Shown piece after piece: positions 29,211 through 63,980 of a DNA stretch of 64,000 bases (position 1 is its first letter; each line of letters opens with the position of its first letter). Source of the stretch: Ostreococcus lucimarinus (Eukaryota); assembly GCA_000092065.1 (NCBI GenBank), contig CP000594.1. One strand, 5' to 3'. The position numbers were made by a program, and so were the translations under genes. The notes under the pieces are model-generated. The model was given only the letters and a program-made list of their open reading frames with translations, did no database searches and was not told the origin of the DNA.

Positions 29211-30103
29211 TTAAAGCGCCGTCGGGCGCCCACCGTCGACGCCGTCGCTCGACGCCTCGGCGGAGGCGCTCAAAAACCCTTGCGCCCACGCCTCGTCGCG
29301 ACTCCATCCGTCCTTTCCAGATGAAATCGAATTCACCGCCGTGGGCTTGGGTTCAGACGTGTACGACGGTCTAGCGCTCTCGACGCGCGAACCGACGGCG
29401 TCGAGAAGATCGTTCGCCCACGGCGCGCCCGGCATCACTCCCGACAGATTGGGATCGGCGAAGTGGGTCTCATCTTTCGGAGCCACCACGTACTCTCCCA
29501 ATCGACGCTTGATCGCGTTCAGAGCCATCTCCGCTCGAAGCGTGCGCTTTTCAAGTCTTCTGTTCTCCGCGTTCAAGCTGAGCACTTCGCGCTCGAGCGA
29601 AAAGTCGTCCACGAGCATCTTCGCGCGCTCTAAGTGCATTTGCTCCACCTTCGCCCGCAACCGCTTGCGGTCGGCGCGCGCGGGCCAACCGAGAACCAAA
29701 TTCCCAAAAAAAGCGCCGAAAAACCCACCCTTCATCACCCGTCGCGTCTCCGGCTTGAGATTCATCCACTCCTTTCTAATCGGCTCCGTCACCGGCTTCA
29801 ACAAATTATTAATCTGCCTCGCCGTCGGCCCAAAGTGATCGACCGCCACGTTCATCGACGGCTGTATCAACTTCGCCTTCTCATTCATCTCCTTCGTCAC
29901 CACGTTCTGCGTCGACTGCGCCCACGTCGCCGTCGTCGCCGTCGCTCGTCTCGTCAGCTCGCTCGCCTTGTCGAACCACTTCCCCCACCCCCCGCCCTTG
30001 CCGTCGCCACCGCTCGCGCTCGTCGAGGCCCCACCGCTCGCGCTCTGCGCGCCGCTCGCGCCGTTCGGTTCCTTGATCGACCGCACCGCGCGTCCGCGCG
30101 CGC

Positions 30104-30140
<37 letters not shown>

Positions 30141-30317
30141 GCGTCGTCCCGTCCCTCGTCGTCGCGCGCCGTCGTCGCGCGTCGTCGCGCGTCCGCGAAA
30201 CGCGCCGGGTGCGCCGCGATCGAGTCCGCGCGCGCCGAGTCCGCGCGGCGGCGGCAGCATGGCGCCGCCGTCGTCGCGCGTCGGCGTGCGCGGACGCGCG
30301 ACGACGCGTCGCGTCAA
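29211..30317 (-). CDS. Hypothetical coiled-coil protein with poly-Thr (T12) tract
   Basis: 368-aa ORF. The (CGT/ACG)n run at ~30105-30141 encodes the poly-Thr tract. Central region of ordinary composition (NEKAKLIQPSMNVAVDHFGPTARQINNLLKPVTEPIRKEWMNLKPE). Divergent from the VPS13 gene. Confidence 0.35.
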
Positions 30318-30596
30318 CGGCTCGGTCGGACGAGGACCGCTACACAGCGCAATTGGAGGTACTTTATGACCTCAGCGTTCATATTAGGACGGTGCGTGTA
30401 CCTATTTACCGGACGAGGACTGCGTCGTATCGGTAAACAGTGCGAGCGACTGACGCTTCAGTCGCGGTCGCGCGACGGACCCGTCGTCGCGCCGCGGCGC
30501 GCGCGACGGACCGCGAGCGAGGCGTCGTCCGTCGCTCGACGTCCGCGCGGCGTTCGCGCGCGCGATCGAGGCGCGCGCGCGTCGCGACGGACGACG

Positions 30597-33500: not shown

Positions 33501-36500
33501 AACGGGGCGAGCAAATTGCGAAGTGACATTTGCGCGAAACTCTCCTTGCACAAGGACGTACTCACTATCGGTGAAACTGTGCATTCTTTGGACGAGTTAA
33601 TGATTTCAGCTATGTCGGATGATAGTCTCAGCGTGATGTTTGATATTGACGATGATGATGCGAGATCTCGCGACACGGTCCTGTTCGATGCATGGTACGC
33701 ACGGATTAACGGCGTCGCTCGCGAAAATATCACTAGGCTGACAAATGCTGCAAAGAACGGCAAGCTGTCGAAGACTCAAGTGATTTTAAGTGTCGGCGCC
33801 GAAAAGCTGTCTGTTCATGTTTTTGCACCTCTCAAAGCACATCCATCCGAAGATGATTCCGCTGTGATAAATGACGAATCAGATTCTGAACGAGCGCTCG
33901 CAAGCCTTTGTTTCGACGAGCTCAACTACGACTCGTCGTTGGCTCGTACCGTGAAAGTCCATCATATAAAAGCAAACTCACTCGTTTTGTACGACAGATA
34001 TGCAAGTGAAGGTCTTGGACGCGAGTGCATCGCCGGAATTGGAGGACAGGGCTCCGGTCAACCCCTACTTACAGTCACGGTCGCCGTTCGCCATCAGAGC
34101 GATCCCCAATATTGCGGATTGGACAAGCTGATCGAAGTCGACATTCACAAAGAGTTAGTGATGAATATTCGTCGGCCCACGCTCCTTGCATTGATCTCGT
34201 TGAGATTCAGACTGCGTCCACCCGGTTTCAAGATTATTAAGATCATGCCTGATGTATCGTCGCGCATCATGATTTCTGGCAAGCTCGTAAAACGGATCAA
34301 ACGCGAGATACGCGTGAACGTTGCGGCAGTGACTGCGAATGGCTTTTATGATCACGACAAAGAGATGGATGTTCCTGTGCTAGTGTTGCGTGCCGAAGAT
34401 TCGTATTGGAGCACCATTATCAGTCCTCCAACACGTGAAACAAGCGTAAGCGTTGGCACCATAAAACTTGCGACGGGACAGATGCAAGCTCGGGGCGCTT
34501 GGAATCTACAACCTTCACCCGAGTCGAGCTCAAACATCATACTTTTACGTAATGACGTGTACGACAGAGGAGAAGAATTAGACGGGGCCGATGTGTCGTG
34601 GGAGATCGAGCTCGGAAATTTGGACATAGTTATGACTCCTGAGATGAAGGAAATTGGATCGTGGTTCGCATTCTTTCGTCAAATAAGACCTGATCATATT
34701 GAAAAGTACGTCCACCCATGTGCACGACCTCGAGCTGGATTTCAAGTGCTCAAATCCCGTCTCTTGATCAAGATGGACGATCAAAGGATCACCTTGCCCG
34801 TCGCCCTCAGCGAGGGCGAGTCAAATCACGACGTCGTCATCAACTCAGGATGTGTAGAAATCACCAGATCATTTTCTTCGAAAGCAATCAATGAAGCGCA
34901 TTCAATATTTTGGCAAACAACGGCATTGAGCGTGTCAGAGTTTGAAGTAAGTGTCATCTCATTTGCGGAGAAGCGGAGAGAAAGCGTTTCTAAAATTACG
35001 CAGAAGCCGTTTGGTGTGAAATTGTCTTTGCGGAAGAGAATTGACAGTGGCCCCGCAATCGTGAATGAACTCGATGATAAGAACAAAATCAGAGTGCAGC
35101 CTATTTTCCTCGACTTATCCGGTAGCGAATTTCGATGTATCCACGATTCCATCAAGAACATTCAGTTGAGTAAAGTTCGGCCGAACGTCAAAGTGGAAAA
35201 TCCTATCAGATGGGGTAGCGTCGGACCGCTCCCTGTTTCAGACGTGCTCGCGCCGGCATCGTTGAAGTCGATGGAATTGAGCGTTATTCTGAGCAGCGCA
35301 AAACTCCGCGTCTTCCGGCTACCGATGCAAAGTCGTCCCCTCTCAACGATAAAGGTAGTTGGCGTCGACGTGTTTGTCGTAAAAAACTTGAATCGCAAGT
35401 CTGGAATCAATCTCGACGCTACCGTGGATATGATTGGCGTCGACGATAATTCTCGACAATCCCAGAACCTTAAAGTCAAGCACGTTCTCTATGCGGGTTC
35501 TCCGAAATTACCATTGCTTCATTTGACGCTCGGTGTGAATGATGACAGCACGCGCCTGCGAATTTCGCTACAGCATGTAGAAGTATTGCTGCGTGTGGGA
35601 ATCATTTTGGATACCATACGGACTTTCGCACCTCGAAAATTTGGAGGGGTCTTTTTAGCCAGTACGATTCTTCCTCAAGACATTAAGTGCGTGCACGGCA
35701 GTGACTTCCATCTCGATAAGGATGTCACTCTGACGAAAAGTACGAGACTGCTGGCCGACGATCCCAAAATTGTTGCTGGCAAATATGTGCTGCGCGGAGG
35801 TGGACATACCATAAAATTCGCCGATGGCAAAGGAGCGATCATTCGTCATTATTCCCATGGCTCTCGACGCAAGACGATGCCACGCATTATTATCGGTCAT
35901 GGCGCAACGCTGAAGATTGAAAACGTCACCTTCAATTGTACACGCTCAACATTGTCAAGGTTTATCAAAATGATGCCCGGCGGTAGTTACTCCCTCGGTA
36001 AGAGTGTTTCCTTTGACGAGACCGAAGAAGAGTTGATACCGGTTCACGATGGTCTTGTTGAAAGCACACCAGTTATTGATGCCGCAACAAAGCGTGCAGA
36101 AGAAGGACCAGGGCGAAGAATGAAGGAAATTAAAAAGAAACCGCTGTTGGTCGAGGTGGATGTGTCATGCGTACATATAGTCATCGGTGAAGAATTGAGA
36201 GCTGATCAGATCAACTTGATGTTTGGAGTCGATGTGGCAATAATTCGGGACGAAGAATTGAACACGACGGGAACTTATCAGCTACTTCGTCTTCGTACGA
36301 AGGACACTATGAAACCACCGCTTCTGGAACCAGCAAGCGTGACAATGCACGTTGTATCGCGTGATGGCGGCACCACAACTTGCACGGGGTGTGTGACACC
36401 TATCAAGATGCAGTTGAGTCCCAACAGGATTTGTATCTTGAAGAATTTCACGGAACGTATTGAGCGATCATTTGCAATTGCGCCCATCTTGCAAACCGGC

Positions 36501-39500
36501 GTGTATTCGTGTGTCTGGGCAGGACATGCAACCACTTTAACAAAAAAAGTAACTGAGGCGGGTGTGCTCCGACAAAATCAAGCCGGTAGCAATACTTCCT
36601 ACTCTATCTGGAGACCCGTTGCTCCACCTGGTTACGCCATACTATCTGATGTCGTGAAGTCTGAAGGAGGAGCTCCTGAAACGCAAGTTTTGATCGTTCG
36701 GGATGCGCCCGCTCTGTGCACGTTGCCAGAGAGATTTGAGAAAGTCAAAGGCACCGCAAATCCTTGCCTGTGGCGCCCGATCGCACCGACGGGTTTCGTG
36801 AGCTTAGGCGATATTGCGTCAGTATCGGATGCGGATGAACCGTCGCTGGACGTCGTCCGGTGTATTCGAGAAGAGCTCGTGACGAACATCGGTCAAGCGT
36901 CTACACTCGCAAACTTTCGCTTGTACGGAGATTTCAGTCAATCGAATACAACGTTGTGGCAAATGAATAACAGAGTCCGCGGATTCGTGGTGGTCTCGAA
37001 GTCGAATATTCGGCCTTACGCGTACGACATTCGCTCCCCTCCTGGATTTCAACGCAAAGTTTCGACGGGAACCAAGGAGAAGATAAAGCTGCAGGAAAAG
37101 GAGTGCGAGTGTGCCACCGCGGTGAATTTCAAAAAGATTGGCATGGCACAAAACGCGAAGTCAACTGTTGGGTTTTGGGAAGTCATTCCGCCTACGGGTT
37201 ATGTATCCACCGGACACTGCATGAGTGTGGGCAAACTTCCGCCTTTAAGCAGTAGAGTGTTCGCGGACGATAAACGTACTTTTCGACAACCAGAGTCATA
37301 TGAAAAAGTTGCTTCAGCGCGTACGTACGGCACCACACAGCGTTTGACAATTTGGAAACCAGTGCCATGCGCCGGGTTTGTGAGCGTCGGGTTTGTTGTC
37401 ACCACTGAAGATAACGAGCCTTCTGTGAATGACTCGATCGTCTGCGTCCGAGCAGAATTGGTATCTTACATGCATCAAAGGAACTGGACTACAGACAACT
37501 CTGTTTGGACAGTTGACGAAAATGCTACAGACACCACGCACTTCTGGATCACAAATGATCACACGAAAAATTTCGTTATGAGTGTTTTGACGACTGGCAT
37601 GACGCCCGATTTCGGCTTTGATATCGGCTTCCTAGAAAGCTCTTCGTTAAGGGGGCAAGTACAAATGCCAAATTTCATTATGAAATTCGACGTGCCTCTT
37701 GTGAGCGTCGGACTCTCATTTGAAAGATTGTTTCGCAACCAGATGCTCTTCTTGCTTCGATTGGAAAAAACGAAGTTGAGTTGTACGAAAACGTCGAAAT
37801 TGAATCTGTCGTTAGATTCTTCGCTGTCTCTCCTGCATAGAAATACGCGACTGGGATACAGTCTAGAACCCATTGTGGCGCCGTGGAAGTTTTCGGTTCT
37901 GTTGGATGACTCAAAAAATGATGTTTCGGGCGTGAATCCCGCGGGGTTGGACATGTTCATTGAAAGTAAAAAGAAGATTGAGATAATCGTCAATCAAGCC
38001 TCCATAGTTGACGCAGTGGATGCCGTGATGCAGTTTAAGAAACCACGCGACAAAAACTCAAAAATTGCACATTTGTTGGCTTACGAAGCCGTGCAAAACA
38101 ACGTCATTGTGAATTCCACGGGACGCGACTTATGGGTTCGCGAACTGAATGGCAATATACAAGAAGTACCGCCTGGAAATAGCATTTCGCATTTGGTACA
38201 TGCCGCTGAAACCGAAGCAAATTCTGGATTCGAGAGTGCATCAAATGAGCAGACGATGCGCGGTATGACTGACGTCGTTGATGACATGAATCATCACGGT
38301 GACGAACAGCTCATTATCGCATACCTGATGATGGATATCGTGGCAATTGACTCGTTGGATGACTGGCTTTACCCCCGCATAACTTTCAAGATTTGGGATG
38401 AGGCTTTGCAGGGTCATCGTACCGATCCATTACCCATCGGCGTTACGCGCGGCTCAGCAAAGTTACCGATCCCTCATCCTTTTTTCCATCGCGATAGTGA
38501 TAGCGAGTTCATCAACAATGACGATATCACCATTATCGTCGAAATTTCTCATATTGGGCCAAATGGCGAAACATTGAGCTTCAGTGGTGACTTTGAAGCT
38601 CCAATCGAACAACAACGCGGTGGATGGATTGGCGGTAAAACTGGAAGCTGGATAGACTGTGCTGCAGGCAATGGTGACTCCGTGAGAATTAAGCTGCGCG
38701 CTCGAGTGGTGGAAGGTTTGAATGCGACGCCAGTCACAGAAACGGTAGAGTTGTATCAACTCTTAAAGAGTCCGCAGAAAACGATTATCAAGAGTAAATT
38801 ACAAGTTGAATCACCACCTCTCATCGTGTGTCGTACGAATGACATGGTGAAGCAATGGTGGACAAGAGATCATCAGCAAAGTAAAAGTGCCCTAAGTGCT
38901 TGGAAGCCGCACGTCCCATCGACGTATGAACTCGAGACGAGATATAAGTTTTGTTCGAGTAGAGCTGAAAACGAGTATAAACTCGTACCTTTTGGGACCA
39001 TCCTCTTGCCCGGCCTCATCGCGCCTCGCAGTGCGCTCATGGCAGTTGTCTTAGAACATAATTCAGATCAGCGGGCACCGACTGCTTTTCCCTCGGGGTT
39101 CGAAAATATTTGGACGAGCGATAAAAATGATGTCTCATTTTGGAAGCCCATTGCACCAGACGGTTACGTTGCAGTTGGTAACGTGGTTGCGGCGAGCGCC
39201 GAAATGCCTTCCACCGATTGCGTCGTTTGTGTTCGCGAGGATTTGACAAAACTTGCAGAAGTGCCTCCGGATGTTGCATGGAAATCGAACAGACGATTTC
39301 GCAATAATGATGAAAGAGAATTGGCGCTTATTCAAAACGGCCAACTGAGTACTGGTGGATGGTCGTTCTTGAAGGAGAAAATCAAGCGCACGAGTCCAGG
39401 CGTGATTTCGAACGTCATTCCATCTATGCATAGACTTAATGACAGGATGTGCATTCATTCTTTGGATGACGAAGGTATTCGCGAGTTTTGGATCGATAAC

Positions 39501-42500
39501 CGCACTCATATAGATCATATAAAGCAAGAATTACAAGCTGGAGAGTCAATTCTCGCCATTTCGTTTTCTCCTTCCGGGCCGTTTGAGCAAGTGCGTCTTA
39601 ATCTAGGCGCTTCACACGTTGTTCGTCACAAGACTCACGATTTAGTCTTTGACAGTCAAAAGGGGCATCTTTTGAGCTATGTTTCGTGCGAAAACGAAAC
39701 AGATTCTGATATATTCGTTGATGTTCATCCAGCTATGAAGAGAGAACTCACGACTTCTAATTTGGACATATCTCTGAGTGAGAAGTATGAGTCGCCGAGC
39801 GATGTCGCGGATATAGAAGTATTTGAATCGGAACGATATTACCCGTTGAGAGGATGGCGTGCTCCAAAAGACGCTATCGTAAAAGCTCGTTATAGCAGGC
39901 ATAAAAGTGGACGAGGTTCGCAAAAACGGTTTCCAGACGTCAAAGCTCCAAAAGGTTTCAGATTTGAAGGACCGTGGGAGCTCGACAAACCACCAAATCT
40001 GGTGAATGACGACGGTTGGGCGTACGGTGCTATTTGGCTAAGGAAGTGGCCACCGCCTCGTGGATCAGACAAAAGTAAAGGTCGTGCAACCCGTCGCCGA
40101 CGATGGTTTCGTCGTGTCGTTCGATTGAAATCAGCTGAAGAAATTGAATCGCGCGTTTCCCTTCATAACATGAAGCGAGATTTCATCGAAGATTGGCACG
40201 GCACGTTGGCGGTACACGGACGTCTTACGCTACCTTCTTGTTCACGAACCGAGTCCTACATGTTGGCGTTACGCACGGGGGCTGACGTCGCATCAATTAC
40301 CGCTCCGTCGTTTACCGAGAGAGATGACGCGCTGGATATTCGTGACGTGTTATCAGAGCAAGGCAACTGTGCGCTTGCTTACAACAACCTGCACGATCAC
40401 TTTCTTTTGGTCAAAGAAGAATTGTCGAATGATGTGCAAAGTAGCGCGATAGGTGCTATTCCAGGCGTCAAGATTCGTGTCGTTGCCCCTGTTCACGTTG
40501 TCTCATTGATGGATTGTCCGTCGCAAGTTGTTTTGTACGCCAATGGCGAAGAAAGAATTGCCATGCATCTTGCCGCGAACGAAACGAAACGTATCACGGC
40601 GATCGATGCAAACTGTGATACAATAGAGGTGCTCGTGTCTTTGTTCGAAGATTATCTCAGCCTTAGTAACGACAGGCCGCTGCGTCTAGATGTCACCCCG
40701 GCTGGAAGTCCACCGGCGCCACAGGTAAACTGGTTGAACATCAAAGGCTATCCGTATGTGGTTTCTATGCTGTTGATGGAGACGTGTAGAACTAGAATGG
40801 CGGGTGATAAATTCAACGATGATCCTTCGCAGCATCTCTTGAGTCTGACGTATCGCAATGTGCTGATGGTTACAAATGCATCACCGATCGACATTAAGTG
40901 TTTGGCGTGGGTCGCTGGCACAAGTACGACAAACGCGCACATAGATGCATACGTTGGGGTACCCAAAGGCGAGTCGCAACCTGCCATGTTTCTGAAATCG
41001 AGTGCGAAAACCCTCGCCAAAGTTTCGAGCAAAGAATTTGTGCTCGGTTTTTGTATCGATTCGTCTCCAGTACTAGTGAAAATTTCACCAAGTTCTGAGC
41101 CCGTGATGTTTACGCTTATGACAGCAAGTGGGGACGAACTTGCCTTTCAATGTTCCGTAGTATTATGGGAGGGTCAAAACACCAACGCCGCGACATGGCC
41201 AACGCTTGAAGTTGTTTTACAACCCGTGCTCGTGGCGATCAACTTGACTCGAATTCCTCTCGCGATTCGCTCAAACACTATGGAACACAAGATACTCGAG
41301 CCAGGTTCATATCCCACGCCGTTTTCTTTGGATATTAAGTCTTCGAAAAGCGTAGACGAAGTTGAAGCCGTGCTTAATCAAGCCGCGATTCAAATAGCGG
41401 ATATGTCGTGTCATTCGGAAGGAAAAGATATACTTTGGAGTTCGCCGCTGCAGAATTTGGTGCGCTATTCTGGAGCGATGTGGAGCATCCCACAAGGTGC
41501 CTCCCCCTTGGCGGATGAAATTAATGCATTTAGAAGACTTGGAGGTATCGACGAGTCTGGCGAAAACGTAAATTTCAAGGCACCTATCATCGTTCAGTTT
41601 CTTGTCGAGCGCGGTGAGCACGGTTGCTTCAGGGTCTTTTTTAGGGGGGGCGACGGAGCATCTCTGCAGAAGGCGCCAATCATGATCAAAAACCATTTGC
41701 ACGAACCTTTACTCATTCGACAAGTGAAAGCGAACGACTTTGAGGACGTAGAAAAGAAGTCGGTGCAAAAGTCCACCGTGCGACTACTGCAAGGTATTAA
41801 GAAAGCCTCACACGGCGTAGGACAGTCTTTTGCAATTCGCCCGTTCTCAGCGATATCTTGGGCGTGGAGCGTCCCAGGTATTCCTATGAGATTGGACAAC
41901 TTGAAAAAACAGGAGCTCGAGGCAAACGCCGCGGAGCTCGCATTTCGAAAGCGGAAATTTTTGGAGATATCGAACAATACAGGGGATCACGTCATCATAG
42001 AGATAAACGCGTTCAGCTCGCGATTCAAGGGTTTCATGCACCTCGGCGACATGCAATTTGGAGAACTAGGCAAGCGCACGTTACAGGCAACGATTATTGG
42101 TGAATGGCGTGACGCATCGTTCGTGATCTTCGTGGTTGATAAAACGATAACGTTTGACAACTTTTCTTTCACGACTGAAATGACGAATCAAGCGAAAGCA
42201 TTGACGTTGTACGCGCGGCAGCAAGAAACGCACATCTCTGTCAATTTGGCTGGCTTCTCCGTAACAATCATCGATCGCCTCCGCGACTCATTCGTCGAGT
42301 TATTCCATCTCACGATCGACGACGTGATGATCAGGCACGGAATCAACTTAATCAACAGCAGTTCTGTCTATAGTTATCTCAGAATTGGTGCACTGCAGAT
42401 AGATTTTAGCACGCATGACGCAAGCTATCCAGTCTTCGTTTGGCACGACCCGGCGGACGGGCACTTGCTTGAAGCGTACGCTACTTTGAGTATGAATTCT

Positions 42501-43901
42501 CATATCGGTGGTGACTCGATCGATGTTTATCACGTCCAACTAACGACAACGAAGAAAGGCCTCGTGATTCGCGCCGGTGAAGATCTCGTCTGGACAATCT
42601 TGAACTTTTGCAGACTCCTCCAAACGCAACTTCCACAACGCAACGCTTCAGCAGGTTCCGCCATCGCGCCACGCGAAACGTTTGTTGGAAAGCAAACCTC
42701 ACAAGATAGTTTGCTGAATATCGCCACTTTATACGTGGAACCGACATCTTTTGTTGTCACGTTTGCTCCAAATTCCGATATCCGACCTGCAGACGCCGAC
42801 GCTCGGATGATCGCCGCGTTGACGTTTGCAAGTTTACAGCGCCTGCATTTGGTGCTCAACAAATTTGATAAATTCGATGAGAGCATACTTCGTTCGAATT
42901 TGATTCGCGAATTCCGAAACTATTTCAAGTCACAAATGATAGCGCAAACGCTCAGTGTCATGACATCGATGCACACGCTGACAAACGTTTCCACGGGTCT
43001 AGATGCAGTGAGCAAGGCGGTCGAAACCGGCTTCGGCGTACTCGCGCCTTCTCGTACGGCGCCTTTGGCTCGTTTGCCATCTTCTGTCGTCGGCCGAGGA
43101 AGCAGAAGCGACGGTCAGGGCAACTTTGCGAAAAGTGTATTCGTTGGTCTGAAACGACTGGGGGGTGGTATTTCTAAGGGAATTATCGGCCTTTTCGTCA
43201 GCCCTGTAAAAGGTTGCATGGAAGGCGGCGTCGTGGGCGGGTGTAAAGGATGCGCTCGAGGCGTCGCCGACTTGGTAGCTAAACCGACCGCTGGCGCGTT
43301 AGCTCTCGCCTCAAAGACGGTCGAAGGCGTAGCCAATGCCGCTAAAGGCGTACAGACTGCCGCGTGGGACATCATCACCACGAATAATGTCTCAAAAGCG
43401 TGCATTAAACGCCTCCCCATCGCCGTGCGATCGGATGGCATCATTCGAAGATGGGATGCGCACGACGCGTTGGGTGTTTATTGCATGCGCACATGCGTCG
43501 TGTCCAGTCGAACACTGGGCATTTCTTACTGTCCGGGCGTGAAAGACTCATTCTCCTCGATGCATGACATTTTCGGTGAATATTTGTTGCTTGTCACCGA
43601 CAAGCGCGCGTTGTGCGTTCGGACGCCGGAGATGGACGGGGCCATGCCGGCGCGCGCGCCGACTTGCGCGTGGTACATCTCTTGGAGTGATGTGAGCTCG
43701 ATATGGATCGAAAACTCTGTGATCATAAAGTTGCAGATGAACGTCACGAGTGAGGGCGACACTTCCAACCTGGGTGCGCAGAAGCGTGAAACCGAATCTT
43801 GTTTTTCGATTCGCGCTAGAGCCCAAGACGAGGCGGCGAACATCGAAGCCGCGATGCGTCAAAGCTGGAACGCCTACCTGGATACAACAGAAGAAGAATA
43901 G
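30597..43901 (+). CDS. VPS13: VPS13-family bulk lipid-transfer protein, ~4434 aa, intronless, with an internal series of Vps62/DUF946-like W-x-P-x-x-P-x-G-[YF] repeats
   Basis: N-terminal chorein-N domain MVFERLLADQLNARLGRVLEGVDRDDVRVGVLNGDVRIRRVRV..VRVPWRNLGKEAVRVTFHGVYVV. One continuous 13.3-kb ORF. The track ORF starts at 29634, but the first ATG matching the VPS13 N-terminus is at ~30597. Five repeats (WRPVAPPGYAILSDVV, WRPIAPTGFVSLGDIA, WEVIPPTGYVSTGHCM, WKPVPCAGFVSVGFVV, WKPIAPDGYVAVGNVV) lie at ~36.6-39.2 kb. Confidence 0.9.
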   Translation: MVFERLLADQLNARLGRVLEGVDRDDVRVGVLNGDVRIRRVRVRASALTKILDEPSARVRCGFVDELRVRVPWRNLGKEAVRVTFHGVYVVGEIDVNGDDEARESEEERRERQRVKALRTARRAADAAERAWLKWNPAVNAEALEAEDGRESAQDGVRKRSAIAGLIDVALANVLIEISNVHVRIEGEYGAGVPWGMGLVLERVSLTTVGEDFENDFKVGGFADSLRKMIALERVGVYADFNSPSVASETPDGWRGIREDQFVRQMSAVFNTEVGERMKEGTSGDVVIPQSYVFGPLRGTATYARRGHAEDTNTPLHQLRMDINSIQISIKSTQLKVFYNMYSNLRTSRVRYTYAHIRPRVGVKGNARLWWRFAGAGVQMHVDEIRKRRGLDFKSSVSAMVRITEARQRYIPLYVKHLRSAPPPPECLIAERAERRNKLWPPKLKIGMSTEIDEIEEGIPLQSIITFRTLAHVEYRESGGVKAAVARERAARFGKRRVVRAVVGLAGGGAKNTAKVLKGLSAPIRGLARAVNKRDSTALLVERQKRLRKSQPEEDDDSNWRESLENTVQLSQRMVALEEEAVHSSVELSGVVNVEKVLVCMVDDEVDNPIGEQEIFRIGVHEVSLGTLRGSGRREQRVSIRRLAIVSPEGTLLDSSKTTDNEERATSLDRSQVALWDKASECNAVQLQIVKGDVETEEDIFIKFQMRQSIVHLLREPLDRVARVAVRHKVTTAYLESFIYDDEAKQRNHTHSIEKQADEFKIRPRVRLDARVHGPVIILDGDGVNLRIDLGTTVIESMTPVSAGIESSLAKEHNVFSFQCTGFQVGFIDDEWDTNSNRPVEDEQIILPLLSAPSSNTVVIQNLNAASDAPNLKVHSKFSAIDISVSPVRVFKIRSLVKALKPTTSISEEHVAAVVTENEVRVLLLQLDESGEVCWIPATISLQNNSSMDIRTINGLKSRTIHINLMESNGASKLRSDICAKLSLHKDVLTIGETVHSLDELMISAMSDDSLSVMFDIDDDDARSRDTVLFDAWYARINGVARENITRLTNAAKNGKLSKTQVILSVGAEKLSVHVFAPLKAHPSEDDSAVINDESDSERALASLCFDELNYDSSLARTVKVHHIKANSLVLYDRYASEGLGRECIAGIGGQGSGQPLLTVTVAVRHQSDPQYCGLDKLIEVDIHKELVMNIRRPTLLALISLRFRLRPPGFKIIKIMPDVSSRIMISGKLVKRIKREIRVNVAAVTANGFYDHDKEMDVPVLVLRAEDSYWSTIISPPTRETSVSVGTIKLATGQMQARGAWNLQPSPESSSNIILLRNDVYDRGEELDGADVSWEIELGNLDIVMTPEMKEIGSWFAFFRQIRPDHIEKYVHPCARPRAGFQVLKSRLLIKMDDQRITLPVALSEGESNHDVVINSGCVEITRSFSSKAINEAHSIFWQTTALSVSEFEVSVISFAEKRRESVSKITQKPFGVKLSLRKRIDSGPAIVNELDDKNKIRVQPIFLDLSGSEFRCIHDSIKNIQLSKVRPNVKVENPIRWGSVGPLPVSDVLAPASLKSMELSVILSSAKLRVFRLPMQSRPLSTIKVVGVDVFVVKNLNRKSGINLDATVDMIGVDDNSRQSQNLKVKHVLYAGSPKLPLLHLTLGVNDDSTRLRISLQHVEVLLRVGIILDTIRTFAPRKFGGVFLASTILPQDIKCVHGSDFHLDKDVTLTKSTRLLADDPKIVAGKYVLRGGGHTIKFADGKGAIIRHYSHGSRRKTMPRIIIGHGATLKIENVTFNCTRSTLSRFIKMMPGGSYSLGKSVSFDETEEELIPVHDGLVESTPVIDAATKRAEEGPGRRMKEIKKKPLLVEVDVSCVHIVIGEELRADQINLMFGVDVAIIRDEELNTTGTYQLLRLRTKDTMKPPLLEPASVTMHVVSRDGGTTTCTGCVTPIKMQLSPNRICILKNFTERIERSFAIAPILQTGVYSCVWAGHATTLTKKVTEAGVLRQNQAGSNTSYSIWRPVAPPGYAILSDVVKSEGGAPETQVLIVRDAPALCTLPERFEKVKGTANPCLWRPIAPTGFVSLGDIASVSDADEPSLDVVRCIREELVTNIGQASTLANFRLYGDFSQSNTTLWQMNNRVRGFVVVSKSNIRPYAYDIRSPPGFQRKVSTGTKEKIKLQEKECECATAVNFKKIGMAQNAKSTVGFWEVIPPTGYVSTGHCMSVGKLPPLSSRVFADDKRTFRQPESYEKVASARTYGTTQRLTIWKPVPCAGFVSVGFVVTTEDNEPSVNDSIVCVRAELVSYMHQRNWTTDNSVWTVDENATDTTHFWITNDHTKNFVMSVLTTGMTPDFGFDIGFLESSSLRGQVQMPNFIMKFDVPLVSVGLSFERLFRNQMLFLLRLEKTKLSCTKTSKLNLSLDSSLSLLHRNTRLGYSLEPIVAPWKFSVLLDDSKNDVSGVNPAGLDMFIESKKKIEIIVNQASIVDAVDAVMQFKKPRDKNSKIAHLLAYEAVQNNVIVNSTGRDLWVRELNGNIQEVPPGNSISHLVHAAETEANSGFESASNEQTMRGMTDVVDDMNHHGDEQLIIAYLMMDIVAIDSLDDWLYPRITFKIWDEALQGHRTDPLPIGVTRGSAKLPIPHPFFHRDSDSEFINNDDITIIVEISHIGPNGETLSFSGDFEAPIEQQRGGWIGGKTGSWIDCAAGNGDSVRIKLRARVVEGLNATPVTETVELYQLLKSPQKTIIKSKLQVESPPLIVCRTNDMVKQWWTRDHQQSKSALSAWKPHVPSTYELETRYKFCSSRAENEYKLVPFGTILLPGLIAPRSALMAVVLEHNSDQRAPTAFPSGFENIWTSDKNDVSFWKPIAPDGYVAVGNVVAASAEMPSTDCVVCVREDLTKLAEVPPDVAWKSNRRFRNNDERELALIQNGQLSTGGWSFLKEKIKRTSPGVISNVIPSMHRLNDRMCIHSLDDEGIREFWIDNRTHIDHIKQELQAGESILAISFSPSGPFEQVRLNLGASHVVRHKTHDLVFDSQKGHLLSYVSCENETDSDIFVDVHPAMKRELTTSNLDISLSEKYESPSDVADIEVFESERYYPLRGWRAPKDAIVKARYSRHKSGRGSQKRFPDVKAPKGFRFEGPWELDKPPNLVNDDGWAYGAIWLRKWPPPRGSDKSKGRATRRRRWFRRVVRLKSAEEIESRVSLHNMKRDFIEDWHGTLAVHGRLTLPSCSRTESYMLALRTGADVASITAPSFTERDDALDIRDVLSEQGNCALAYNNLHDHFLLVKEELSNDVQSSAIGAIPGVKIRVVAPVHVVSLMDCPSQVVLYANGEERIAMHLAANETKRITAIDANCDTIEVLVSLFEDYLSLSNDRPLRLDVTPAGSPPAPQVNWLNIKGYPYVVSMLLMETCRTRMAGDKFNDDPSQHLLSLTYRNVLMVTNASPIDIKCLAWVAGTSTTNAHIDAYVGVPKGESQPAMFLKSSAKTLAKVSSKEFVLGFCIDSSPVLVKISPSSEPVMFTLMTASGDELAFQCSVVLWEGQNTNAATWPTLEVVLQPVLVAINLTRIPLAIRSNTMEHKILEPGSYPTPFSLDIKSSKSVDEVEAVLNQAAIQIADMSCHSEGKDILWSSPLQNLVRYSGAMWSIPQGASPLADEINAFRRLGGIDESGENVNFKAPIIVQFLVERGEHGCFRVFFRGGDGASLQKAPIMIKNHLHEPLLIRQVKANDFEDVEKKSVQKSTVRLLQGIKKASHGVGQSFAIRPFSAISWAWSVPGIPMRLDNLKKQELEANAAELAFRKRKFLEISNNTGDHVIIEINAFSSRFKGFMHLGDMQFGELGKRTLQATIIGEWRDASFVIFVVDKTITFDNFSFTTEMTNQAKALTLYARQQETHISVNLAGFSVTIIDRLRDSFVELFHLTIDDVMIRHGINLINSSSVYSYLRIGALQIDFSTHDASYPVFVWHDPADGHLLEAYATLSMNSHIGGDSIDVYHVQLTTTKKGLVIRAGEDLVWTILNFCRLLQTQLPQRNASAGSAIAPRETFVGKQTSQDSLLNIATLYVEPTSFVVTFAPNSDIRPADADARMIAALTFASLQRLHLVLNKFDKFDESILRSNLIREFRNYFKSQMIAQTLSVMTSMHTLTNVSTGLDAVSKAVETGFGVLAPSRTAPLARLPSSVVGRGSRSDGQGNFAKSVFVGLKRLGGGISKGIIGLFVSPVKGCMEGGVVGGCKGCARGVADLVAKPTAGALALASKTVEGVANAAKGVQTAAWDIITTNNVSKACIKRLPIAVRSDGIIRRWDAHDALGVYCMRTCVVSSRTLGISYCPGVKDSFSSMHDIFGEYLLLVTDKRALCVRTPEMDGAMPARAPTCAWYISWSDVSSIWIENSVIIKLQMNVTSEGDTSNLGAQKRETESCFSIRARAQDEAANIEAAMRQSWNAYLDTTEEE

Positions 43902-56991: not shown

Positions 56992-57883
56992 ATGCTCGGG
57001 ACTCAATCTCGCGGTCACGCCGCGGGCGATCGCAAGAGCGCGCTCGTGCGCTACGGACTCGTGGCGATCGCGTTGATGAATGTCGGTGTCGAATTGATTA
57101 AGATGTACTTTGGAACGAGCGCGCGCGGCGTGGAGGGGCGATACGGACGCGTGCGCGCGGAGGTGGCGTCGGTAAATCATCGCACGTCGTCGCTCGAGCG
57201 GACGATGCCGCGCGCGGATGCGCTGGCGCCCGAGGTGGAGGAGACGCGGGCCGAAACGGCGGCGGCGACGGCGCTGGCGCCCGAGGTGGAGGAGACGACG
57301 ACGCCGGCGAACGTTCGGCGGCGAGAGAGAGAGTGCGGTTCGCCCGCCGTCGATGGCTACGCGCACGTAAATTTGACGTGCTTGGCGATGAGTGCGACGG
57401 CGAGAGAATTCGCTCACGCGTCGGCGAGCGGGCGCGAGAAGTTGCGAGCGCACATCGAAGAACACGCGTCGTACGACGGCGTGGCGGTTCGTTGGGGAAT
57501 CCATCACACGACGGAAACCGCGGAGGAGTGCGGTGAGCGGTGCAAAGAACACGTGGTAAAGCCGGACGGAATCGGTGCAGAAGTTTTGCCGTGCAACGTG
57601 TTCGTTTGGCCGTCCCAAAGACGTCGGTGAGGGCGGTTGCTTTGAACCAGACGCGCACCAGCACTTCGCGGGCGACTGTTGGCTCAAGTTTAGCGAGACT
57701 CCGGAGAACGTCGAGGTGAACCAGCGAGGGGCCAACGACGCACCTGGGTTCGTGAATAAGGATGGAAAGACGTTCGCCGAGCGACACGCGAACGCGCCGA
57801 AATTAGTCCATTGGTCGAGCGGCGTGCTGCTTCCGGAATCGATGACAGCTTCGAGCACGCTCGGGCCGCGCGCAACGTGGTAG
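56992..57883 (+). CDS. Hypothetical membrane-anchored Cys-containing protein; reading frame shifts near ~57600-57640 (frameshift, pseudogene or unresolved splice)
   Basis: Track ORFs 56992..57630 (..LPCNVFVWPSQRRR*) and 57575..57883 (..GGCFEPDAHQHFAGDCWLKFSE..) overlap in different frames and together look like one conserved C-rich domain. No family assigned. Confidence 0.3.
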
Positions 57884-58548: not shown

Positions 58549-58889
58549 GATGCGCTGTGTTTCTTTTCTCGGCCACGCGCGCGTTTTCTTTTGTCCGCCT
58601 CTCTCTCGCGCGCGCGTCGTCGAGTGATGCTGGTGCCGCTCGTGACGGATTTAAGGGCGTGAACACCCGCGTGTAAAAGCAGACACTTTATATAGCACTT
58701 TGGGAGGTTAAAAGGTGTCCCAAAGTCTCATACATTGGCCTATACTTTGGCAACATCCCGCGCTTTGATTACTGTACAGTAATCAAAGCGCGGGATACCG
58801 TGGAATGGACTCGGAAAAACCTCTAGAAGTTCGGCGGCGCCATTCCGCGCGCGATCTCAGCGGGCGAGCGTGATCACCAACGTGGACCG

Positions 58890-60959
58890 ATGAGGCACCG
58901 ATCGTACCGTGTATGCAATGGACGCACGCTCGCACTCATCGCGCTCGTCGTGCTTGTCGCACGCACGCAGCGCGTCTTCGCTTCGCCGACCGACGAGCGA
59001 AGATTCTGGACGCCCACTGTCGTCGCCGTGGACGACGGCGTCGGTTCGAAGATCCGACGCATGGGAAACGATGTGGAGAAATCGAAGTCTTTCGTGTTTG
59101 AGAACACGGTAGCGGAATCGCTGACAAGAGATGGCGTCGTCGCGGTGCGAGTGCGAGGCTTGAACGAAGCAAAGACACAGAGCGCAAAACTCTTCATGGA
59201 TTGCGCGCGGGTTACGGATAATGTTGCAGTAGAAGAGTACGACGATGGATCCAGGCGCGTGACGCTCGCCACGACGACGAAGCAGAGGGGGAGTGGTTTC
59301 GGGGAACCCACGTCCAAAGCATGTAAGAAGTTCGAGGTCACGACGAAAATGCTTCGCGCGAAAGTTTCTGTGGCCGAACAAGCAATCACGGACGTGTTTC
59401 AGAGCAAGTTTTCAGATCTGAGTGAATTTGCGAACGGGGTACTGATGCAGGGAGAGAACGGCGAGACCTATAAAACTTTCTCGGAAGTATTGAAAGACTG
59501 CGAGCACCTTGAACATTTTCACGGCTACACGATTTCACCACAACAAAAATTGAAGAATAGTAAAGTGCGGACGATCGAAGAGCACACGGATCAAGGTCTA
59601 CTCATCGCATTCGTCCCGGCCATAATTGTCGATGCAGTGACGGGAAGGCGCGATAAGTTTTCCTCAACCGGCGATTTTTATATGACGCTTCCTGGGCATC
59701 GCAAGGTGCTTCTCCATTTTGACACGCTTCCAGACGATGTCGTTATTTTTATGCTGGGTCAAGCAATCGAGCAACAAATCACTCCCAAACTTGCAAACGG
59801 CCTTGAGCTTCACGCTGTACCACACGCAATGGATATGCCCAATCTTAAATCTAATCAGTTCAGATTTTGGTATGGGCGAATGTTCCTCCCACCTGAGAAT
59901 GCCTTGGACGAAAGCCATGGTCTCTCTTTTGGGACAGTGCGCGCTAACATCATCGAAGATTTCGCACGTGGGCTGAAGACATCCGTGGGATGTGGTCGTG
60001 AGCTCCTCTCCGTGGCAGGGAGCGGTTCATGCGCTAGCAACCAGATATGGTGCTGGATGCGATGCATGAATCACTCAGCGCCGGCGAGCAATCCACTCAC
60101 ATGCAGGACGGGTCATAGTGTCCAATGTTTGAGCCAAAGACTGGAAGTCTGGACGGATGCCGACAGTCATGGTGATTATAATCCTGGATGCACCGACGAG
60201 ACCAACGAGACAAAGCCCGTCACCGATCCACCGACCATCCCAGCTCGAGCAGCCTCTTGTACAGATGGAAACGCCTGGGAAACTTTTTTGAACCACTCCG
60301 AATATGAAAACAGCTTGGAGCTGTTACAAGATAAGTTATATTTACTCTGGACTGTTCAAAATGGTAAGTTAAAAGCCCGAGTTGCCTTCAATGGCAAGAT
60401 TGGTTGGTTTGCTCTCGGCATCAAAAACCTAGGAGGGAAACACAACGGGATGAACGGGGCGAACATCGTCATGGGCGTCCACGACCCTCATCCAATGGGT
60501 CACGACAGCAATTTCGGTTCTCCTTATGTTGGAAAGAGCAGTGCGAAACAATACAAAATCCACGATCATTCTTCTGCTTTTCGACATTGGAATGACACTG
60601 CTGACGTTGCCTCACCCTTCGTGAGTTCGACGACGTTCAATTCATGTTTCAGTTGTATGCGTTTCGAGACGGCCTCGATACGGGGCGAGGCTCTGAATCT
60701 CACCTCTGGTATTAATGAACTCATCTGGGCTGCTCATGATGGCACTTACCTCAAAGGCTACCATGAAGTACAAGGATTCGATCGGAGAGATGCACGCGGG
60801 CATCTCACGCTTGACCTGACGCGAAATTACGGTCGTGTAACGTGCGGCTTCTCAAGAGGCTGGGCTGCGGCGAGTCAAACATGTGCTTTTTCGGCAGCAA
60901 GCACTCCTTCAGCGATAGTTTCTATATCCATTGCTGTCATTGCAATCCTCGTTATGTGA
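58890..60959 (+). CDS. Secretory-pathway 2-oxoglutarate/Fe(II) dioxygenase-like domain fused to a DOMON-like domain, with N-terminal signal peptide and C-terminal hydrophobic anchor
   Basis: Signal peptide LALIALVVLVARTQRVFA. 2OG-oxygenase-like block EHTDQGLLIAFVP...VVIFMLGQAIEQ...NGLELHAVPHAM...RFWYGRMFLPP (HxD...H...R spacing). DOMON-like block LYLLWTVQNGKLKARVAFNGKIGWFALGIKNLGG...NIVMGV...IWAAHDG. C-terminal anchor SAIVSISIAVIAILVM. Confidence 0.55.
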   Translation: MRHRSYRVCNGRTLALIALVVLVARTQRVFASPTDERRFWTPTVVAVDDGVGSKIRRMGNDVEKSKSFVFENTVAESLTRDGVVAVRVRGLNEAKTQSAKLFMDCARVTDNVAVEEYDDGSRRVTLATTTKQRGSGFGEPTSKACKKFEVTTKMLRAKVSVAEQAITDVFQSKFSDLSEFANGVLMQGENGETYKTFSEVLKDCEHLEHFHGYTISPQQKLKNSKVRTIEEHTDQGLLIAFVPAIIVDAVTGRRDKFSSTGDFYMTLPGHRKVLLHFDTLPDDVVIFMLGQAIEQQITPKLANGLELHAVPHAMDMPNLKSNQFRFWYGRMFLPPENALDESHGLSFGTVRANIIEDFARGLKTSVGCGRELLSVAGSGSCASNQIWCWMRCMNHSAPASNPLTCRTGHSVQCLSQRLEVWTDADSHGDYNPGCTDETNETKPVTDPPTIPARAASCTDGNAWETFLNHSEYENSLELLQDKLYLLWTVQNGKLKARVAFNGKIGWFALGIKNLGGKHNGMNGANIVMGVHDPHPMGHDSNFGSPYVGKSSAKQYKIHDHSSAFRHWNDTADVASPFVSSTTFNSCFSCMRFETASIRGEALNLTSGINELIWAAHDGTYLKGYHEVQGFDRRDARGHLTLDLTRNYGRVTCGFSRGWAAASQTCAFSAASTPSAIVSISIAVIAILVM

Positions 60960-61210
60960 CGCGGAAGTTTGCATTCTTCACGATCTTTCAATCGACACCC
61001 GAAACAGTCTGAGCACGCACCGACAGTCACGCCGTTGTAGGTCCCGGCGTGATAACAGAACTCTTCGCTTGATGCGAGTGCGTTCGTGCTCGCGTACGCA
61101 CTCGAAACGGTGCAGTCGGCGTGAGAGAAACACACGTCGCCCGGGTCCGCGCGCGCGGTGTGCGCGACGGCGAGAGCGAAAACGAACGGCACGAGGAGGT
61201 TCTGAAACAT
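60875..61210 (-). CDS. Small secreted Cys-rich protein (111 aa from ATG; signal peptide MFQNLLVPFVFALAVAHTARA)
   Basis: ATG at ~61208-61210; 10 Cys. Its 3' end overlaps the convergent upstream gene by ~85 bp, so the call is tentative. Confidence 0.3.
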   Translation of the reverse strand: MFQNLLVPFVFALAVAHTARADPGDVCFSHADCTVSSAYASTNALASSEEFCYHAGTYNGVTVGACSDCFGCRLKDREECKLPRHITRIAMTAMDIETIAEGVLAAEKAHV

Positions 61211-61302: not shown

Positions 61303-61464
61303 CGCCCCGCGGGGCGTGTGTGCCAGCCCGTAGGGTTTAGGGGATCGGACATATGGAGCCTCACTATTAAGACACACTGTCATATATATTAATGGATTTA
61401 TGACAGTGTGTCTTAATAGTGAGGCTCCATATGTCCGACCGCGGGCACACATCCCCGCGGGGCG
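61303..61464. repeat. Long hairpin-forming inverted repeat: perfect 40-bp arms (61345..61384 / 61399..61438) around a 14-nt AT loop, nested in imperfect GC-rich outer arms (cgccccgcgggg..gtgtgtgcc)
   Basis: TCGGACATATGGAGCCTCACTATTAAGACACACTGTCATA and its exact reverse complement, separated by tatattaatggatt. Confidence 0.85.
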
Positions 61465-61706: not shown

Positions 61707-61730
61707 CCTATAACCTATAACCTATAACCT
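61707..61730. repeat. (CCTATAA)4 heptanucleotide microsatellite
   Basis: cctataacctataacctataacc, downstream of an A10 run. Confidence 0.8.
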
Positions 61731-61863
61731 TGAAGGTTGAAATTTCTTAAGACCCGGGGTCCGCTGTTAAGGGGGGTCGGAACGCACAGAGAAATCGGGC
61801 TCGTCGTCCTGTGTATCAGCAGTCCTGTAGTAGGAAGTCATTTTTTGCTGTTTTGGGCATCCC

Positions 61864-62172
61864 TTGCGTTCAGAGATTCCATTCTGAAGAAATCTTAAGC
61901 GAGGGCACCAAAAACTCAAGGTCTCAACGGTCGCACGCTTCAGACTAGTTACATCTTCTGTACCTCCAAGCAGCGAAGTGCTCCTGTGTGTCAGGTTTGT
62001 CTCACCAAACACCGAGATCTTCGAGAAGACGAACACGTTCCGCTGAGAGTTTGCACGTGCACCTGTCTTCCTTTGCCTGATTTGTGAGCCATCACCCCAG
62101 ATTTGAATGTGGCGTATCTTATCGCGACACTCTCGCTTAAGATCTCTTCAGAATGGAATCTCTGAACGCAAG
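61864..62172. mobile_element. MITE-like non-coding element, ~309 bp, bounded by 40-bp terminal inverted repeats (37/38 identity in the core)
   Basis: Left arm cttgcgttcagagattccattctgaagaaatcttaagcgag (~61864..61903). Right arm ctcgcttaagatctcttcagaatggaatctctgaacgcaag (~62132..62172), which is its reverse complement with one mismatch. No ORF inside. No clear target-site duplication seen. Confidence 0.45.
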
Positions 62173-62996: not shown

Positions 62997-63980
62997 TCAC
63001 GATCGAGTACCGAAGACAAAATTAGCGCACTTTTTTCTATCATCTGCAGAATGCGAGTTTGGCGCATTTTTTACTGCGTCGCAGTGTTTCTTAGCCGCTT
63101 TGCACTGTTTGGAGCAGACATGCGGACATGCTGCCACCCAGGTTGGGTTGGAACATAGATGGCGCCTGCCTTCCGGCTTGCCGCAGCCCCGCGGAATCGA
63201 TTCACAGGGAGCCATGTTGGGTAGATCAGGCGTTTCCCAGACGGTACCAGAGATACCATCGAAACCTGGGCACGTGTAATCGTCACTCAGAGTACAGCCA
63301 GTCGCCGCCGAGCCTTGACAAGATCTTTTCCAACCACCCAAACGCCTATGGCCCTTTGTACGCTTTTGGCAAGTACCCGTCGACACGTTGTACGCTTGTT
63401 TAGCTTCCTTAGTATCAAACGAGTGACACACGCATGAATCAATCAGTGGCAAAGCGCGGACCTGTACGGCCGGCTCATGCTCGCACGCCCAACACGAGTG
63501 TCCTCCAATACTGATCCCGAACCGCTGGCGCATCTCTGACGCGCAGACTTTCGCGCGTTCCTCCTCGTTGAGCTCCATTCCCGCGCAGGCACAAGCGCAC
63601 TGTGCACGCGACCACTCCACTCCATCTGTCGCACCAACATAACCTCTCATATCATTCTCCAGTTGGGCGTGTTGGTCGTGGCATATTCTCGCACACGCCG
63701 CGAATGTCTTCATAGATTCTGGTAGTCCGTAGTGCACCGCGGCCTGGGACACCGCGTCGTCATCCATGAGTTTCCACCCCGTGACCCCCGAGCTCACTGG
63801 CCGCCGCCGCCGCCCGAGCTCACTTGACGGTGCATCCAAATCACCGCCCGCATCGCCTGGGTCCGTCGCCACCGCCGTGAACGGCGCATCCGCGTCAACG
63901 CCCGCGGCGACGTTCAGCGCCGCGGCCCCCACGAACAGCGCCAACGTCAAAGGTGACACACATTGCCTTCGAAACCCCAT
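62997..63980 (-). CDS. Secreted Cys-rich protein (signal peptide; >25 Cys) of unknown family
   Basis: N-terminal LTLALFVGAAALNVAAG signal-like segment. Numerous CxxC/CxC spacings (CACACAG, CWACEHE, CVCHSFD, CPHVCSKQCKAAKKHC). Confidence 0.35.
   Translation of the reverse strand: MGFRRQCVSPLTLALFVGAAALNVAAGVDADAPFTAVATDPGDAGGDLDAPSSELGRRRRPVSSGVTGWKLMDDDAVSQAAVHYGLPESMKTFAACARICHDQHAQLENDMRGYVGATDGVEWSRAQCACACAGMELNEEERAKVCASEMRQRFGISIGGHSCWACEHEPAVQVRALPLIDSCVCHSFDTKEAKQAYNVSTGTCQKRTKGHRRLGGWKRSCQGSAATGCTLSDDYTCPGFDGISGTVWETPDLPNMAPCESIPRGCGKPEGRRHLCSNPTWVAACPHVCSKQCKAAKKHCDAVKNAPNSHSADDRKKCANFVFGTRS

Follow-up and report, generated by a model that had tools for sequence, protein, structure and literature searches.

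A predicted secreted, membrane-anchored protein joining an Fe(II)/2-oxoglutarate-type oxygenase fold to a DOMON-type domain in Ostreococcus lucimarinus

Introduction

The known oxygenases of the IPNS/plant type that depend on 2-oxoglutarate (2OG) are, to our knowledge, soluble cytosolic enzymes drawing on the intracellular 2OG pool. IPNS itself and ACC oxidase belong to the same fold group and keep the same His/Asp/His and Arg/Tyr residues without using 2OG. DOMON domains are found in other combinations. AIR12 is a cell-surface DOMON protein on a glycosylphosphatidylinositol (GPI) anchor, and in CYBDOM proteins the DOMON domain is joined to a membrane redox partner; both carry ascorbate-reducible haem b and neither has an oxygenase domain. 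The gene described here occupies positions 58890-60959 on the plus strand of a 64,000-nucleotide stretch of the Ostreococcus lucimarinus genome (contig CP000594.1), hereafter the window. Its product very probably combines a secreted and anchored oxygenase-fold domain with a Cys-rich linker and a DOMON domain. The full interpretation, with a probability of roughly 60%, is that of an extracytoplasmic, membrane-anchored two-domain oxidoreductase in which a haem in the DOMON domain relays electrons to the oxygenase iron.

Both parts are known, the 2OG-oxygenase double-stranded beta-helix (DSBH) fold and the DOMON domain, and their combination is undescribed in the literature searched. Literature searches returned no description of an oxygenase-DOMON architecture, of a secretory IPNS-type oxygenase or of the present family, which bears out an earlier reading of the sequence alone (hereafter the sequence-only reading) that had called the pairing unusual. 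The DOMON passage of a paper on iron in O. tauri was considered as a possible description; that passage concerns cytochrome b561-DOMON proteins and not this gene. In databases, members of the family are labelled at most "DOMON domain-containing" or "hypothetical".

IPNS/plant-type oxygenases are not known to be secreted, membrane-anchored or fused to a DOMON domain, whereas the present protein is predicted to be all three and is probably disulfide-bonded. ACC oxidase and IPNS are cytosolic, single-domain proteins, and the shared fold is the only likeness to them that was found. In cellobiose dehydrogenase (CDH) and PQQ-pyranose dehydrogenase, an AA8 cytochrome is joined to a flavo- or quino-dehydrogenase, whereas the partner here would be a non-haem iron oxygenase; the domain order is also reversed, with the candidate cytochrome at the C-terminus, and the direction of electron flow would probably be into the catalytic domain, not out of it. 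Dopamine beta-hydroxylase (DBH) has an N-terminal DOMON domain and a two-copper monooxygenase core, whereas here a predicted non-haem iron DSBH core precedes a C-terminal DOMON domain. The protein would thus add a natural pairing of DOMON with an iron oxygenase to those of DOMON with a copper monooxygenase (DBH) and of a cytochrome with a dehydrogenase (CDH), and this pairing may help to explain DOMON function. It also raises the question of how a secreted, anchored oxygenase, probably with its own cytochrome, keeps its iron reduced and is supplied with co-substrate outside the cytoplasm.

The gene and its secretory features

The coding sequence is complete, starting with ATG and encoding 689 amino acids followed by TGA. 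The protein is 100% identical to XP_001421254/XP_001421289 of O. lucimarinus CCE9901, and one source names it "DOMON domain-containing protein"; the window is accordingly nuclear DNA of this species. A chance open reading frame (ORF) is rejected, because an exhaustive profile search finds 1418 clusters of relatives (50% identity) at E<=1e-3, 614 of them at E<=1e-30.

Sequence and hydropathy predict a signal peptide at residues 1-31 (58890..58982). The N-terminus, MRHRSYRVCNGR-TLALIALVVLVA-RTQRVFA/SP (the slash marking the cleavage point), has the n/h/c layout of signal peptides, with a basic n-region, a 12-residue hydrophobic core and a cleavage-type site VFA/S. At the other end, residues 668-689 (60891..60956) consist of the small residues SAAS and a tail whose final 15 residues (AIVSISIAVIAILVM) are hydrophobic. 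Kyte-Doolittle peaks occur only at residues 6-32 and 665-689, so both the signal-peptide start and the hydrophobic C-terminal tail proposed in the sequence-only reading are present. The C-terminus, SAAS-TPS-AIVSISIAVIAILVM, is compatible with the GPI-anchor pattern of omega-site, spacer and hydrophobic tail devoid of cytosolic residues; the tail is therefore predicted to be a GPI-signal-like or tail-type membrane anchor.

These features recur across the family. Among the 94 two-domain members in the non-redundant matches, 67 begin with Met and a hydrophobic segment, and in 73 the last 45 residues include a hydrophobic stretch. In some homologues, the bare hydrophobic tail is replaced by a transmembrane segment with a basic cytosolic tail, an interchange to be expected of ectoproteins. 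Eleven Cys residues are conserved in the family, including the pair C105/C145 within the oxygenase domain, and the protein contains five N-x-S/T sequons for N-glycosylation. Together, the signal peptide, terminal anchor, conserved Cys and sequons argue for an extracytoplasmic setting.

The N-terminal oxygenase domain

The first domain spans residues about 36-362 (58995..59975) and was delimited with an AlphaFold2 (AF2) model and Foldseek. In the model, which was built on 70 sequences and has a mean predicted local distance difference test (pLDDT) value of 82, an alpha/beta region is followed by a DSBH core. A Foldseek search of the PDB gave, as its best 50 matches, exclusively IPNS/plant-type oxygenases of the Fe(II)/2OG type, with E-values from 1e-12 to 3e-10, 310-397 aligned columns, about 13% identity and TM-scores (target) of 0.48-0.63. 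They include 9hdl, 6ku3, 5mof and 5c3p, and the enzymes matched comprise the pyrimidine nucleoside 2'-hydroxylase PDN2'H, GA2ox3, ethylene-forming enzymes, T7H, deoxypodophyllotoxin synthase, T6ODM, F6'H, DAO1 and TropC. Giant-virus IPNS-like dioxygenases were found in the viral structure library BFVD (E 1e-9). As modelled, the N-terminal domain has the IPNS/plant-type Fe(II)/2OG oxygenase fold.

Conservation was assessed in 205 family sequences aligned to the family hidden Markov model (HMM), with pairwise identities of about 25-40%. Wherever they are covered, H209, Y213, H232, D234, H312 and R325 are invariant. H232-T-D234 (59583..59591) would supply the first two Fe(II) ligands of an HxD motif and is invariant in 185 of 185 sequences; H312 (59823..59825), the proposed distal ligand, is so in 195 of 195. 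The segment R325-F-W327-YGRMF (59862..59885) follows, with R325 found in all 195 sequences and W327 in 194 of them. According to DSSP on the AF2 model, H232 ends strand 229-232, H312 begins strand 312-315 and R325 lies on strand 323-333, positions that we take to be those of the HxD motif, the distal His and the Arg of the RxS motif in this fold. The HLEHFHGY motif (residues 206-213; 59505..59528) lies on the first core strand of the model; its H209 and Y213 never vary and H211 is 96% conserved. R325, standing at the RxS position of plant 2OG-dependent dioxygenases, is a candidate to bind the C5-carboxylate of the co-substrate, and Y213 is its candidate partner for that carboxylate. By alignment, the protein thus appears to keep the defining residues of an active Fe(II)/2OG-type center, and to keep them under strict selection. 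The H-x-D...H...R residues picked out earlier are the invariant ones, and the quoted motifs sit where they were placed: HTDQGLLIAF from residue 232, VIFMLGQAIE at 285-295, HAVPHAM at 308-314 and RFWYGRMF at 325-332.

The comparison with rice GA2ox3 (6KU3), Neurospora crassa PDN2'H (9HDL), T7H (5C3P), the ethylene-forming enzyme (5MOF/5LUN) and anthocyanidin synthase (ANS) shows a common overall fold, including the N-terminal alpha/beta part. These enzymes also have the H-x-D...H triad, followed on the next strand by an Arg, and a Tyr in the first core strand; all of these residues are invariant here. The spacing R-x-x-x-x-x-x-x-x-P-P after the Arg resembles that in RISWAVFCEPP of ANS. Unlike these enzymes, the present family has an extra invariant HLEHFH strand.

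The Cys-rich linker and the DOMON domain

Residues 363-460 (59976..60269) form a linker module characterized by the motif HGDYNP and eight conserved Cys, at positions 368, 381, 388, 392, 405, 413, 434 and 457. This module has no assigned fold.

The region of residues about 466-645 (60285..60824) is modelled as a DOMON-type beta-sandwich. In the structural comparison table for this region, the highest values belong to human DBH (11.4), the gamma subunit of ethylbenzene dehydrogenase (11.1), the CDH cytochrome domain (10.6) and the cytochrome b domain of Coprinopsis PDH (10.5), followed by two chains of MtCDH (9.9 and 9.6) and NxrC (9.7); CBM9-type modules reach 7.8 or less and immunoglobulin folds 5.9 or less. 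The DOMON assignment of the sequence-only reading stands as far as the fold is concerned. It did not pass the Pfam profile, since PF03351 matches residues 482-533 with 15.2 bits (E=0.025), below the gathering score of 32.7 bits. A weak match to this profile was obtained for 10 of 70 family members at E<=0.1, the best at 4e-4.

Four DOMON residues are strictly conserved, G510, M521, W567 (141 of 145 aligned sequences) and H625, and R565 and R636 are kept in about 91-95%. M521 (60450..60452), in the motif HNGMNG, is found in 155 of 156 aligned sequences and lies in the model between strands 506-511 and 525-530; it is a candidate axial ligand of haem b. H625 (60762..60764), in the motif GYH, is present in all 144 sequences and is the candidate second axial ligand. 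The two are separated by about 104 residues, which recalls the CDH cytochrome domain with its haem b ligands Met65 and His163, 98 residues apart. There is also a local likeness between GGAMNN of CDH and NGMNGA here. The alignment by hhalign with a CDH sequence did not reach significance, with the His off by one. Haem binding by the DOMON domain is thus a well-motivated proposal from conserved residues.

An alternative keeps the same architecture and dispenses with the haem. We know of no haem in the DOMON of DBH, and, as in that protein and in the CBM9-type relatives, the domain could bind a ligand or sugar rather than haem. It would then dock the oxygenase on a surface glycan or partner and carry no electrons. 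The conserved candidate Met and His ligands favor haem, and a purely ligand-binding domain is considered rather unlikely. For the electron relay itself, the odds are about even.

Distribution of the family

A word-index search found only 15 relatives, and repeating it with the 70-sequence alignment added nothing new. Beyond the cluster of at least 90% identity, the best of these relatives is 40% identical, which is also the value for the nearest homologue outside Ostreococcus. All named members of the family are green algae: Ostreococcus, Pycnococcus/Pseudoscourfieldia, Cymbomonas, Pyramimonas and Tetraselmis. The rest of this large family is known from algal MMETSP transcriptomes and from assembled metagenomes (ENA, JGI/IMG, Logan and, among marine ones, Tara). 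No orthologue from O. tauri or another named member of the Mamiellales was present among the homologues found, and a 33%-identical homologue lies on a Tara contig of 65% GC that is possibly from Micromonas. When IMG/VR viral contigs and 185,579 prokaryotic species genomes were scanned for the two best-conserved peptide patterns, no relatives turned up. Recognition of the oxygenase domain annotates many genes at once, and points to a cell-surface redox chemistry, open to testing, in picoalgae of ecological importance.

In several homologues (P0002, P0063, P0075, P0158, P0181, P0184 and P0196), low-complexity stretches rich in His/Asp or Gly/His, such as DHDHDDDDHDHDHDHDD, follow the last folded domain and precede the membrane anchor. 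They are absent from the O. lucimarinus protein. Such a stretch may be a metal-binding spacer.

Proposed mechanism and alternatives

In the proposed mechanism, the signal peptide would direct the protein to the secretory pathway and the hydrophobic tail would tether it to a membrane, on the luminal or outer side. Fe(II) would be bound by H232, D234 and H312, while R325 and Y213 would hold the distal carboxylate of 2OG or of another acidic co-substrate or substrate. The eight conserved Cys of the linker would form four disulfides. In the DOMON domain, M521 and H625 would ligate haem b in the manner of Met65/His163 of CDH. This haem would be reduced in one-electron steps by ascorbate or by a membrane reductase, for instance cytochrome b561, and would relay the electrons to the non-haem iron, keeping it ferrous in an oxidizing compartment. 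Alternatively, the relay could provide part of the reducing equivalents for O2 activation, or rescue Fe(III) after uncoupled turnover. AIR12 and CYBDOM are a possible model for the electron source.

More radically, the relay could take the place of 2OG, in the way that ascorbate serves ACC oxidase. The two electrons that ACC oxidase takes from ascorbate are a precedent for a cytochrome-fed reaction independent of 2OG. The protein would then represent a new class of eukaryotic ecto-oxygenases, in which the non-haem iron of an IPNS fold receives its electrons not from 2OG but from a fused b-type cytochrome fed by a trans-plasma-membrane reductase or ascorbate. If true, marine algae could oxidize an external small molecule where 2OG is absent, and such oxidation could serve nutrient scavenging, metal handling or signaling. 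This extension is speculative and seems improbable.

Several observations weigh against the interpretation as a two-domain oxidoreductase. No 2OG-oxygenase family of Pfam (PF03171, PF14226) matches the protein at E<=1, or any of 70 family members at E<=0.1, and NCBIfam has no match to the N-terminal domain. The 2OG-oxygenase assignment of the sequence-only reading is thus upheld by the predicted fold and the invariant residues, and not by the Pfam check. Searches of the PDB with phmmer and hmmsearch, using the single sequence, the alignments A1 and A3 and the core-only alignment A5, gave chance-level matches apart from a marginal one (E=0.96) to N. crassa PDN2'H, which covers an N-terminal strand-helix motif and the segment preceding the distal His. 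The hhalign comparison of the family alignment with an ANS sequence likewise gave a weak, insignificant local alignment. Both weak alignments agree on the register of the strand-helix just before H312. Because no sequence profile recognizes the domain, the residue equivalences rest on the predicted model, secondary-structure position and these two very weak alignments. The carboxylate-site motif (RxS plus Tyr) is only partly matched, with Y213 and R325 kept and the Ser position taken by W327 (RxW for RxS). 2OG is therefore a possible rather than an established co-substrate, since the Ser is a Trp and IPNS and ACC oxidase retain the same residues. The supply of 2OG outside the cell is doubtful. 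In the DOMON domain, H625 falls in a low-pLDDT loop between strands 609-616 and 636-641.

The same side of the balance holds about 15 apparently complete members of the family that have a signal peptide, oxygenase, Cys-rich linker and anchor, and no DOMON domain. Their existence implies that the DOMON domain is a modular addition within the family and that the cytochrome is not strictly required for catalysis. An auxiliary or modular role of the DOMON domain is therefore favored, and a separate DOMON protein may fill it in trans. P0151, P0164, P0165, P0170, P0175, P0181 and P0192 are among these DOMON-less members.

The failure of every profile HMM to recognize the domain would also fit a catalytically inactive surface protein, i.e., a pseudo-enzyme, adhesin or structural protein with an oxygenase-like fold, as would the change of the conserved LGDG to LGQA in the O. 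lucimarinus copy. Every candidate metal or carboxylate ligand is, however, invariant across the family, which is not expected of a dead enzyme and makes this explanation extremely improbable.

Another possibility, modelled on the prolyl and lysyl hydroxylases, is a luminal 2OG-dependent hydroxylase of the endoplasmic reticulum or Golgi that acts on secreted proteins or on wall or scale precursors and is merely retained in the endomembranes by its anchor. In contrast to seawater, the secretory lumen offers both 2OG and ascorbate. O. lucimarinus, on the other hand, is a naked alga that is not known to have a wall or scales. The structural neighbors are all small-molecule enzymes and not members of the P4H or JmjC protein hydroxylase subfamilies, and the terminal tail is GPI-signal-like and carries no cytosolic retention signal. 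In the diatom Thalassiosira pseudonana, DOMON proteins induced by silicon addition are reported to be co-expressed with cingulins and co-induced with frustule proteins (PMC5501833), which would favor a luminal hydroxylase if these proteins belong to the present family. On balance, a luminal hydroxylase is judged unlikely.

For the extracytoplasmic oxidoreductase, a small polar substrate is favored over a protein or glycan, because the structural neighbors all act on small molecules and because the conserved charged residues D119, R123 and R156, in the N-terminal alpha/beta part of the domain, lie where a substrate lid would be expected.

Genomic context

The sequence-only reading had placed the gene in a lower-GC stretch together with two Cys-rich secreted neighbors, and had suggested that this may be a cell-surface or glycan-modification island. 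The lower GC is real, with 0.46-0.55 in 1-kb windows at 58-63 kb against a mean of 0.58 over the whole stretch, and both neighbors exist as ORFs with signal-peptide-like N-termini. The first, on the minus strand at 60875..61210, is a putative gene of 111 amino acids with 7 Cys. It overlaps the 3' end of the oxygenase-DOMON gene by 85 nt (60875-60959), so that its C-terminal 28 residues, which are not Cys-rich, are antisense to the anchor; either this is a real convergent overlap of coding sequences or the ORF is no gene. It has no Pfam or NCBIfam family at cut-off (DUF2284, the only match, reaches 17.2 bits against a 25-bit cut-off). The second, also on the minus strand (62997..63980), encodes a secreted-type protein of 327 amino acids with 23 Cys. 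Its homologues are all 87-100% identical, making it an orphan restricted to Ostreococcus, and it has no Pfam or NCBIfam family at cut-off, the only Pfam match being HTH_psq at E=0.18. In the contigs, a 355-residue version of this ORF is called from a GTG upstream of the signal peptide, which looks prokaryote-style; judging by the sequence, translation more likely begins at the ATG at 63980.

A horizontally acquired island of low-GC genes working together would be in keeping with the GC content at third codon positions (GC3), which is 0.54 in the oxygenase-DOMON gene and 0.56 and 0.60 in the two Cys-rich ORFs, against 0.73-0.76 in the poly(A) polymerase gene and the next ORF upstream. Values of 0.73-0.78 are found across the poly(A) polymerase gene and the ORFs at 56992-57630, 22663-26055 and 4282-5991. 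Giant surface-type genes flanking the gene in related contigs, with G8/CEMIP domains downstream and DUF285 upstream, the structural variation just upstream of it, and the mere 40% identity of the closest homologue outside Ostreococcus would also agree with an acquired island.

The window also carries RRP12, RRS1 and a VPS13-like gene. The latter is an uninterrupted ORF of 4755 amino acids on the plus strand (29634-43901), encoding a lipid-transfer protein with VPS13_N, Vps62 and VPS13_C; it lies 15 kb away and fills most of the long 47% GC stretch of the window. Since this core gene has the same GC3 of 0.54, low GC3 marks no foreign island here, and a foreign origin based on GC alone was rejected. 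The locus of the 33%-identical homologue has unrelated neighbors (PAP2, Sel1 and pyruvate kinase), the 327-residue neighbor is an orphan and neither Cys-rich ORF has a family assignment at cut-off, and no glycosyltransferase or related domain was detected in the five ORFs scanned at 55-64 kb. A functional gene cluster around the gene is not supported, and the island as a working unit is quite improbable; of the GC claim, the local drop remains and its uniqueness does not.

In the metagenome contig L001, the next gene lies beyond the end of the window (L001 15425-22070). It encodes more than 3800 amino acids with G8 and a CEMIP beta-helix, has a GC3 of 0.57 and, from its domains, looks like a giant secreted or surface-type protein.

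Upstream palindrome and repeats

A perfect 42-bp palindrome (58755..58796) is located 94 bp upstream of the ATG. Exactly at its center, the metagenome contigs L001, L002 and L006, which encode the identical protein, contain an extra segment, placing structural variation 94-121 bp upstream of the gene. The segment measures 8.7 kb in L001 and 9.0 kb in L002, with an 8-bp overlap (TTACTGTA); the corresponding contig positions are 1110-1170 and 9850-9910 in L001, and 810-870 and 9850-9910 in L002. Its right end, TTTAGGGTTTAGGGTTTTGGGTTT, is telomere-repeat-like. Identity to the window is 97.5-99.6% in the flank upstream of the segment and 99.9-100% in the downstream flank. A giant DUF285 protein gene lies upstream in L002, L005 and L006, and in L001 its place is taken by large genes with no family match on record. 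Three readings of the extra segment are considered: an indel in the population, a segment that is mobile or stems from a healed break, and a second genomic copy, as the two accession numbers for the same protein imply. A second copy of the gene within the window was rejected.

Downstream of the gene, an intergenic stretch of 418 bp (61717-62134) has an 89%-identical copy at 1282-1691 of L001, just within the additional segment that the metagenome contigs carry upstream. Inverted repeats of 41 bp lie within it and at its end (61863-61903 and 62132-62172), and it may be a small repeat or an element resembling miniature inverted-repeat transposable elements. Upstream of the 111-residue ORF there is a palindrome of about 94 bp (61345-61438; 94% self-complementary). 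The alignments to L001 and L004 break at its center (61367-61416), which suggests a polymorphic or unstable hairpin.

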